The notes under the pieces were generated by a model. It was not told the DNA's origin. It searched no databases and saw only the letters and a list, made by a program, of their open reading frames with translations. A DNA stretch of 64,000 nt, from the IMG/VR virus record IMGVR_UViG_2939142107_000001, positions 1-64,000 of that record. The stretch is one strand, 5' to 3'. Below, one piece after another: positions 55,926 to 57,358 of the stretch. Source of the stretch: a virus. Taxonomy: Duplodnaviria > Heunggongvirae > Uroviricota > Caudoviricetes. Both the position numbers and the translations under genes were made by a program. Numbering within the stretch: position 1 is the first letter of the stretch; each line of letters opens with the position of its first letter.

Positions 55926-56080
55926 TTTGCCGCCGTTTCGTAATACGACTTTGGATTCACTATTTAATGTGTCTTCAGCGTTGTAGAGCGGCTCAGAAGG
56001 AAATGAGCAAACAGGGAAACCTTATACAACGGCATTACAGCTATGCATTGCTCATCTTACACACAGCGCAATGTTGTTAG

Positions 56081-57275
56081 GGAAGGTGCGAATAAGCGGG
56101 GAAATTCTTCTCGGCTGACTCAGTCATTTCATTTCTTCATGTTTGAGCCGATTTTTTCTCCCGTAAATGCCTTGAATCAGCCTATTTAGACCGTTTCTTC
56201 GCCATTTAAGGCGTTATCCCCAGTTTTTAGTGAGATCTCTCCCACTGACGTATCATTTGGTCCGCCCGAAACAGGTTGGCCAGCGTGAATAACATCGCCA
56301 GTTGGTTATCGTTTTTCAGCAACCCCTTGTATCTGGCTTTCACGAAGCCGAACTGTCGCTTGATGATGCGAAATGGGTGCTCCACCTTGGCCCGGATGCT
56401 GGCTTTCATGTATTCGATGTTGATGGCCGTTTTGTTCTTGCGTGGATGCTGTTTCAAGGTTCTTACCTTGCCGGGGCGCTCGGCGATCAGCCAGTCCACA
56501 TCCACCTCGGCCAGCTCCTCGCGCTGTGGCGCCCCTTGGTAGCCGGCATCGGCTGAGACAAATTGCTCCTCTCCATGCAGCAGATTACCCAGCTGATTGA
56601 GGTCATGCTCGTTGGCCGCGGTGGTGACTAGGCTGTGGGTCAGGCCACTCTTGGCATCGACACCAATGTGGGCCTTCATGCCAAAGTGCCATTGATTGCC
56701 TTTCTTGGTCTGATGCATCTCCGGATCGCGTTGCTGCTCTTTGTTCTTGGTCGAGCTGGGTGCCTCAATGATGGTGGCATCGACCAAGGTGCCTTGAGTC
56801 ATCATGACGCCTGCTTCGGCCAGCCAGCGATTGATGGTCTTGAACAATTGGCGGGCCAGTTGATGCTGCTCCAGCAGGTGGCGGAAATTCATGATGGTGG
56901 TGCGGTCAGGCAAGGCGCTATCCAGGGATAACCGGGCAAACAGACGCATGGAGGCGATTTCGTACAGAGCATCTTCCATCGCGCCATCGCTCAGGTTGTA
57001 CCAATGCTGCATGCAGTGAATGCGTAGCATGGTTTCCAGCGGATAAGGTCGCCGGCCATTACCAGCCTTGGGGTAAAACGGCTCGATGACTTCCACCATG
57101 TTTTGCCATGGCAGAATCTGCTCCATGCGGGACAAGAAAATCTCTTTTCTGGTCTGACGGCGCTTACTGCTGAATTCACTGTCGGCGAAGGTAAGTTGAT
57201 GACTCATGATGAACCCTGTTCCATGGCTCCAGATGACAAACATGATCTCATATCAGGGACTTGTTCGCACCTTCC
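56081..57275 (-). mobile_element. IS5 insertion sequence (1195 bp) with 16-bp terminal inverted repeats and 4-bp target site duplication TTAG
   Basis: Inverted repeats GGAAGGTGCGAATAAG (56081-56096) and reverse complement of GGAAGGTGCGAACAAG (57260-57275); flanking TTAG at 56077-56080 and 57276-57279; encodes InsH. Confidence 0.95.
56227..57207 (-). CDS. insH: IS5 transposase InsH
   Basis: 326 aa from [64 protein letters not shown]... recognised as E. coli IS5 InsH. Confidence 0.95.
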
Positions 57276-57358
57276 TTAGATTACCCCAGCATGGATCATG
57301 GGTGAAACAGTAGGTCAGAGCTTCAGGCTCTGTGTTGTCAATACAGTGAGGCATAATT

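Follow-up and report, generated by a model that had tools for sequence, protein, structure and literature searches.

The window analysed here consists of the initial 64,000 nucleotides of a P1-like phage-plasmid of the IncY type. In its immC region it carries a complete IS5, which evidently transposed into the junction between imcA and imcB very recently. The gene orphaned by this insertion is coi (together with imcB), and not c1. We infer that the recent hop of IS5 into immC probably reduces the synthesis of Coi by polarity and would thereby bias the phage-plasmid toward lysogeny. P1-like phage-plasmids spread resistance genes, and their balance between plasmid life and lytic growth rests on the C1/Coi/Lxc circuit. 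The feature by itself is an ordinary IS insertion in a standard P1 immC region; what is new is the particular allele, and the recognition of three separate IS5-family events within 40 bp, one of which is widely spread. In the literature searched, IS insertions in the immC region of P1-like phages are not discussed.

The inserted element (positions 56081–57275; 1195 bp; transposase gene on the minus strand) proved to be IS5 itself in all of the sequence criteria applied. Its length conforms to the ∼1195 bp of IS5, and it is bounded by the 16-bp imperfect terminal repeats of this element, GGAAGGTGCGAA(T/C)AAG, both without mismatch. IRR (56081–56096, plus strand; GGAAGGTGCGAATAAG) lies at the 3′ end of ins5A, whereas IRL (57260–57275, minus strand; GGAAGGTGCGAACAAG) lies at the end containing the transposase promoter (PMC11894529); it is this end that faces imcB and coi. 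The terminal-repeat pattern GGAAGGTGCGAAYAAG has only two matches in the whole 64-kb window (0.03 expected by chance), which contains a single IS5 copy. The 4-bp target duplication at YTAR (CTAA/TTAG) is represented by TTAG at 56077–56080 and its direct repeat at 57276–57279. Between the repeats, a single long ORF for a DDE transposase of 326 aa, insH (ins5A; 56227–57207, minus strand), contains the Pfam domains DDE_Tnp_1 (2e-35) and DUF772 (3.5e-21); an upstream ATG at 57243 is a possible alternative start, which would extend the protein to 338 aa.

With the IS5 copy of E. coli K-12 (IS5 family, InsH/Ins5A) the element shares its 1195 bp, the 16-bp terminal repeats and the TTAG/CTAA duplication, and it differs by five substitutions (1190/1195 identical, 99.6%) and by its new location at a P1-like imcA/imcB junction. 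One of the five substitutions changes a residue of the transposase (R274K; 325/326 identical to K-12 InsH). As the identity to the ISKpn26 of phage phi456 is 91%, the element is near-identical to the reference IS5 and not to an isoform such as ISKpn26. The IB region (∼177 bp adjoining IRR, bent and bound by IHF; PMC2753651) is identical to that of the K-12 copy. That the element is competent for transposition is suggested by its undamaged termini and ORF, and by how recently it evidently inserted. K-12 matches that run 24 bp into the flank of the window do not represent a shared flank, but a chance likeness of another TTAG target.

The empty site, ...AATGTTGTTAGATTACCCC... with a single TTAG, was found in P1 and in the IS-free plasmid pCARB35_01 (NZ_CP031654.1, 89,643 bp, IncY). 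To this plasmid and to NZ_CP029103.1, which is likewise IS-free, window positions 31100–56080 and 57276–64000 are 100.0% identical, and the coordinates of pCARB35_01 match those of the window up to 56080. When IS5 and one TTAG are subtracted, the remaining 62,801 bases differ from positions 1–62801 of pCARB35_01 at one base (28482). Because the window corresponds to IS-free pCARB35_01 apart from the insertion and one SNP, the transposition into a phage-plasmid of this IncY P1-like type is real and very recent. Thus, the sequence-only reading, which had proposed that a complete IS5 with intact repeats, InsH and TTAG duplication transposed into immC, agrees with the coordinates, the ends and the empty site. 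Base 28482, the sole difference to pCARB35_01 over 62.8 kb other than IS5, falls in a gene annotated as encoding a glycine-rich domain protein.

That a chromosomal IS5 was misplaced in the plasmid contig during assembly is extremely improbable. IS5 is present in multiple copies in E. coli (the junction query matched 2203 of the 5426 genomes, at a median of two places each), and multicopy repeats such as IS5 are a classic cause of misassembly. However, the element is full-length with exact ends, it is flanked by a perfect 4-bp duplication of the canonical target within otherwise seamless flanks, and identical junctions are present in two independent complete plasmid assemblies. The precise termini and the duplicated target led us to reject misassembly.

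To place the insertion within immC, the annotated promoters and operators of the P1 record (AF234172) were transferred onto the window. From lox to the start of c1, the window differs from P1 at only two bases, and the order of elements is that of P1 (loxP, P1coi/Oc1d, imcA, imcB, coi, Oc1ab/Pc1, c1), with cre (54304–55335, minus strand) and pacB (58556–60040, minus strand) beside it. Operators and promoter hexamers are free of differences to P1, except for Oc1e (one difference). The 17-bp asymmetric consensus of the C1 operators, ATTGCTCTAATAAATTT, has 10 matches in the window at three or fewer mismatches, compared with 0.29 expected by chance. Farther away, on the minus strand at 50664–52213, the window encodes a YaaC-like protein (PF14175, 6e-46) and a protein of 169 aa with a sub-threshold match to nucleoside 2-deoxyribosyltransferase, where P1 has the restriction genes res and mod, between mat and a large methylase gene. 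Neither protein had a PADLOC match; in a region already known to be variable, the two genes may represent uncharacterised cargo.

On the loxP side of IS5, the 34-bp loxP itself (55745–55778, mapped from the P1 record) is followed by P4cre (55793–55822, minus strand) with the operator Oc1e (55822–55838), which is directed at loxP, cra and cre. The promoter P1coi (55899–55928, plus strand; −35 hexamer TTGACA at 55899–55904) and its operator Oc1d (55905–55921) show no difference to P1, and P1coi is the strongest plus-strand promoter match of the region in a matrix scan. The sequence alone leaves the choice of its true −10 hexamer among AGTTTT, which is given in the P1 record (18-bp spacer), TATAGT (15-bp spacer) and TAGTTT (17-bp spacer); the latter two score higher in a simple matrix. 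The gene downstream, imcA (37 codons, 55967–56080, plus strand), differs from that of P1 by one amino acid (T27A). IS5 is located in the 18-bp spacer between imcA and imcB, and the TTAG target includes the imcA stop codon (TAG, 56078–56080); since the target duplication regenerates this stop codon, the imcA ORF is kept.

On the far side, imcB (31 codons, 57298–57393, plus strand), identical to that of P1, starts 22 bp past IS5. It is followed by coi (57359–57568, plus strand), which encodes the C1 inactivator of 69 aa, intact and identical to P1 Coi, and which contains the C1 operator Oc1c (57396–57412, plus strand, mapped from the P1 record). Next are the bivalent operator Oc1ab (57568–57595, from the P1 record and an operator match) and c1's own promoter Pc1 (57582–57611, plus strand; TCTATT-18-TATAAT), which lies downstream of IS5 and is unaffected. 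The c1 gene (57679–58530, plus strand) encodes a repressor of 283 aa with two amino acid differences to the P1 c1.100 allele. The segment 57542–57574, which spans the 3′ end of coi and the start of Oc1a, has exact 33-nt matches in the E. coli chromosomes NZ_CP122938.1 (there in an annotated CRISPR array) and NZ_CP134663.1; spacers that target the immC region of P1-like phages are apparently present in some E. coli.

IS5 therefore splits P1coi/Oc1d and the intact imcA from imcB, coi and c1, with insH directed back toward P1coi. The imcA-imcB-coi-c1 operon is no longer contiguous but interrupted by 1199 bp between imcA and imcB, and coi is 1199 bp farther from P1coi than at the empty site. This arrangement had been recognised in outline from the letters alone, as IS5 was placed upstream of coi and downstream of a TTGACA/operator/TATAGT element, annotated as P1coi and Oc1d in P1 itself; the distances are 155 bp from the end of TATAGT (55925) to IS5, and 83 bp from IS5 to the coi ATG at 57359. 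The alignment to P1 immC that had been suggested for identifying displaced operators and small ORFs puts IS5 at the imcA stop, with imcA intact and imcB downstream of the element.

In P1, both P1coi and Pc1 drive the synthesis of C1, but only P1coi that of Coi (PMC8546580). [quoted passage not shown] Because c1 keeps Pc1, whereas Coi comes from P1coi only, the gene orphaned by IS5 is coi. Three of the five immC operators (Oc1c, Oc1a and Oc1b; 57396–57595) remain with c1 as well, together with Pc1 and identical to P1. The earlier claim that the insertion separates the promoter-operator cluster from both coi and c1 is thus borne out for coi (with imcB), but not for c1.

In the course of events that we propose, IS5 targeted the TTAG holding the imcA stop codon, and the 1.2-kb element now parts P1coi, Oc1d and imcA from imcB, coi and c1. 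As c1 retains Pc1, Oc1c and Oc1ab, repression and maintenance of the plasmid prophage should persist, whereas coi is deprived of its sole known promoter. Transcripts from P1coi could reach coi only after traversing 1.2 kb of RNA that is untranslated and antisense to insH, and would meet a hairpin, a T-run and a C-rich segment first. The predicted result is a polar drop, or loss, of Coi, and of that share of c1 mRNA which originates from P1coi. After infection, or upon partial derepression, the lytic push exerted by Coi would then be weaker, which would shift the decision toward lysogeny and stable plasmid carriage.

The hairpin (56110–56156, plus strand, stem CTCGGCT...GAGCCGA) is located at the 3′ end of IS5 and is followed by six T residues; the C/G ratio on the same strand is 1.2–1.8 over 56121–56320. 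When the first 120 nt of IS5 were folded (plus strand), the hairpin was no stabler than shuffled sequence (z = 0), and it could be a weak terminator candidate at most. Together, hairpin and C-over-G stretch are compatible with intrinsic or Rho-dependent termination, without being statistically compelling. Lying opposite the transposase-gene strand, the hairpin could halt outside transcription that enters IS5 here; on the transposase strand it lacks a T-run, in agreement with the read-through described for ins5A transcripts.

An approximate sigma-70 matrix scan, which recovers P1coi (13.5), P4cre (10.4) and Pc1 (5.9), detected no new promoter at the junction of IS5 and coi, the best site between them scoring 4.7 and consisting of native sequence; a consensus promoter scan over 55700–57800 returned nothing, and missed P1coi, too. 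These scans bear on the suggestion of the sequence-only reading that IS5 could supply outward transcription, which in the direction of coi is unsupported. If IS5 nevertheless drove transcription of imcB and coi independently of C1, from an opposite-strand or a junction promoter, Coi and with it spontaneous induction would be raised. IS5 has small ORFs on its opposite strand with promoters of their own, and plus-strand promoter-like matches inside the element score 6–7, which is weak; none of them was found by the consensus scan. Phage phi456, in which ISKpn26 is inserted 36 bp farther upstream and is oriented alike, has been described as highly prone to spontaneous induction. Constitutive synthesis of Coi, however, would destabilise lysogeny, yet the analogous ISKpn26 allele is stable in 81 plasmids, and the junction creates no promoter-like element. 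Activation of coi is thus improbable.

The known modes of activation by IS5 point away from coi. At glpFK, flhDC and fucAO, IS5 precedes the promoter that it activates; the bent 3′ end, which binds IHF, lies nearer to this promoter, and the ins5A promoter lies at the far end (PMC2753651, PMC11894529). For coi, the geometry is different, as the IRL end is proximal and IS5 lies downstream of P1coi; for P4cre, it is matched only loosely, at a distance of ∼260 bp. Since coi lies beyond the end with the ins5A promoter, and P1coi, P4cre, loxP and cre lie beyond the 3′ end, any effect derived from IS5 itself would be expected on the cre side, or as a collision with transcription from P1coi, rather than on coi. 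The bent 3′ end, or read-through from ins5A, might accordingly raise expression of cra and cre from P4cre, possibly with interference at the convergent P1coi. The orientation is the activating one, the IB region is unchanged from K-12, and read-through of the whole element by ins5A transcripts is possible (PMC11894529). Against this, IS5 lies ∼260 bp from the −35 hexamer of P4cre, whereas in the characterised cases it is nearer (−99 to −170), and the ins5A promoter is essentially silent without an upstream activator site (PMC11894529). Moreover, the CTAA/TTAG target is asymmetric, which accounts for the orientation shared among insertions, and the K-12 copy is likewise flanked by TTAG in the same TTAG-to-IRR arrangement; the shared orientation is hence no evidence of selection. 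An effect on the cre side is, all in all, very improbable.

The exact junction was found in two of 5426 complete E. coli genomes, in both cases on a plasmid from ducks (pBL12EC-2, NZ_CP079777.1, and the BHD6 plasmid, NZ_CP141792.1); the exact left-junction pattern had no match in IMG/VR, the JGI metagenomes or the GTDB representative genomes, and the record of the window itself was absent from PLSDB, the phage collection and the complete RefSeq genomes of E. coli. The duck plasmids have IS5 at the same TTAG and in the same orientation, and at the left junction they match the window at 100% over 241 bp. In contrast, their backbone is another one (∼119 kb, typed IncFIB), IS5 shows three differences to the copy in the window, and the flanks show 40, within ∼400 bp to each side. 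Because of these differences in both flanks and IS5, the allele of the duck plasmids most likely represents an independent insertion at the same TTAG, not shared descent. Transfer of the duck allele by homologous recombination was considered unlikely, as it would require one crossover in the 142 bp to the left of IS5 and another in the 93 bp to its right, and IS5 differs at three bases.

A third event involves ISKpn26 (1196 bp, 91% identical to the IS5 of the window), which is inserted 36 bp upstream, inside imcA, in the same orientation and with a CTAT duplication. This allele is carried by the phages RCS47 (FO818745) and phi456 (OR339795), 81 PLSDB plasmids, 64 complete E. coli genomes and 3 IMG/VR contigs. 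Like IS5 in the window, ISKpn26 lies between P1coi and imcB-coi and severs coi from P1coi; unlike it, ISKpn26 truncates imcA near codon 25, and the allele is older, widespread and found on a divergent immC type (∼93% identical). For comparison, immC was matched by 702 PLSDB records (568 uninterrupted) and by 715 of the 5426 complete E. coli genomes (568 uninterrupted); 66 of these 715 genomes have an IS5-family insertion at this spot. The presence of IS5 at the same site in reference P1-like phages, which had been named in advance as evidence that would refute the sequence-only reading, was thus nearly encountered, with ISKpn26 36 bp away in RCS47 and phi456. The record of RCS47 already annotates an interrupted imcA beside insH.

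Two of these records deserve comment. In RCS47 (segment 768–2669), IS1 and dmsA, and not the P1coi/loxP side, lie to the left of ISKpn26, and some PLSDB plasmids likewise match only query positions 342–2001, with the P1coi/loxP side no longer to the left of ISKpn26; larger rearrangements apparently had their breakpoint at the IS in imcA, too. In the phi456 record (segment 2402–3382), two ORFs make up the ISKpn26 transposase, which is possibly frameshifted, and each of them is misannotated as 'putative baseplate hub protein'.

Phage phi456 is released spontaneously at ∼10^7 PFU/ml, is reported to show high spontaneous induction and forms plaques (PMC10967188). Hence, a phage with an IS5-family element at this spot is not disabled, which argues against a strong "locked" phenotype, and for the ISKpn26 insertion an effect that locks lysogeny is not evident; RCS47, with the same insertion, was deposited as a phage genome. 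These observations count against the explanation favoured here, as does the fact that P1coi is already repressed by C1 in lysogens, for which reason the effect on the resident plasmid may be small. They would also suit an IS5 that is a mere passenger, having hopped recently, and without selective relevance or meaningful effect, from a host rich in IS5 into a permissive site. The extreme recency of the event (one SNP from IS-free relatives) is in line with this, as is the absence of the allele from all collections searched except for the two duck plasmids, and coi and imcB are dispensable for lytic growth of P1vir (PMC10695390). On the other hand, the sole known promoter of coi is severed, so that the dosage of Coi can hardly remain unchanged in the decision phase. 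In addition, the clustering of three separate IS5-family events within 40 bp, one of them in ∼11% of P1-like plasmids, suggests a hot spot at the least, and possibly a favoured site. We consider a neutral passenger unlikely, albeit with a real chance of being correct.

The recurrence itself hints at a structural hot spot or at selection for retuned immunity. Taken further, the 40-bp imcA/imcB junction might be a recurrent landing site for the IS5 family whose occupation is selected, in that cutting off coi from its C1-controlled promoter would retune, or partly domesticate, the phage-plasmid in favour of stable carriage as a plasmid while virions are still formed. This is a tentative and rather doubtful proposition; if true, the window would be a fresh third example, after the ISKpn26 lineage and the IS5 allele of the duck plasmids. 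The natural separation of coi from its promoter, together with the near-isogenic IS-free partner pCARB35_01, constitutes a ready pair for addressing the role of Coi in the lysogeny choice and in spontaneous induction.

An IS5 in a P1 genome is not without precedent, as the P1 record itself (mod749::IS5; AF234172/NC_005856) contains one, according to its title; in that case, however, the element resides in the restriction-modification gene mod, and immC is empty. The earlier statement that P1 has no IS5 at the present site is therefore correct, but the reference genome is not free of the element. With the activation of glpFK, flhDC, fucAO and bgl, the insertion in the window has in common the same element, the CTAA/TTAG target and an AT-rich regulatory region (the cra-imcA intergenic region has 38% GC, compared with 48% for the window). 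In those systems, IS5 is located upstream of the promoter, whereas in the window it is located downstream of the promoter and inside the operon, an arrangement that predicts polarity on coi and not its activation.
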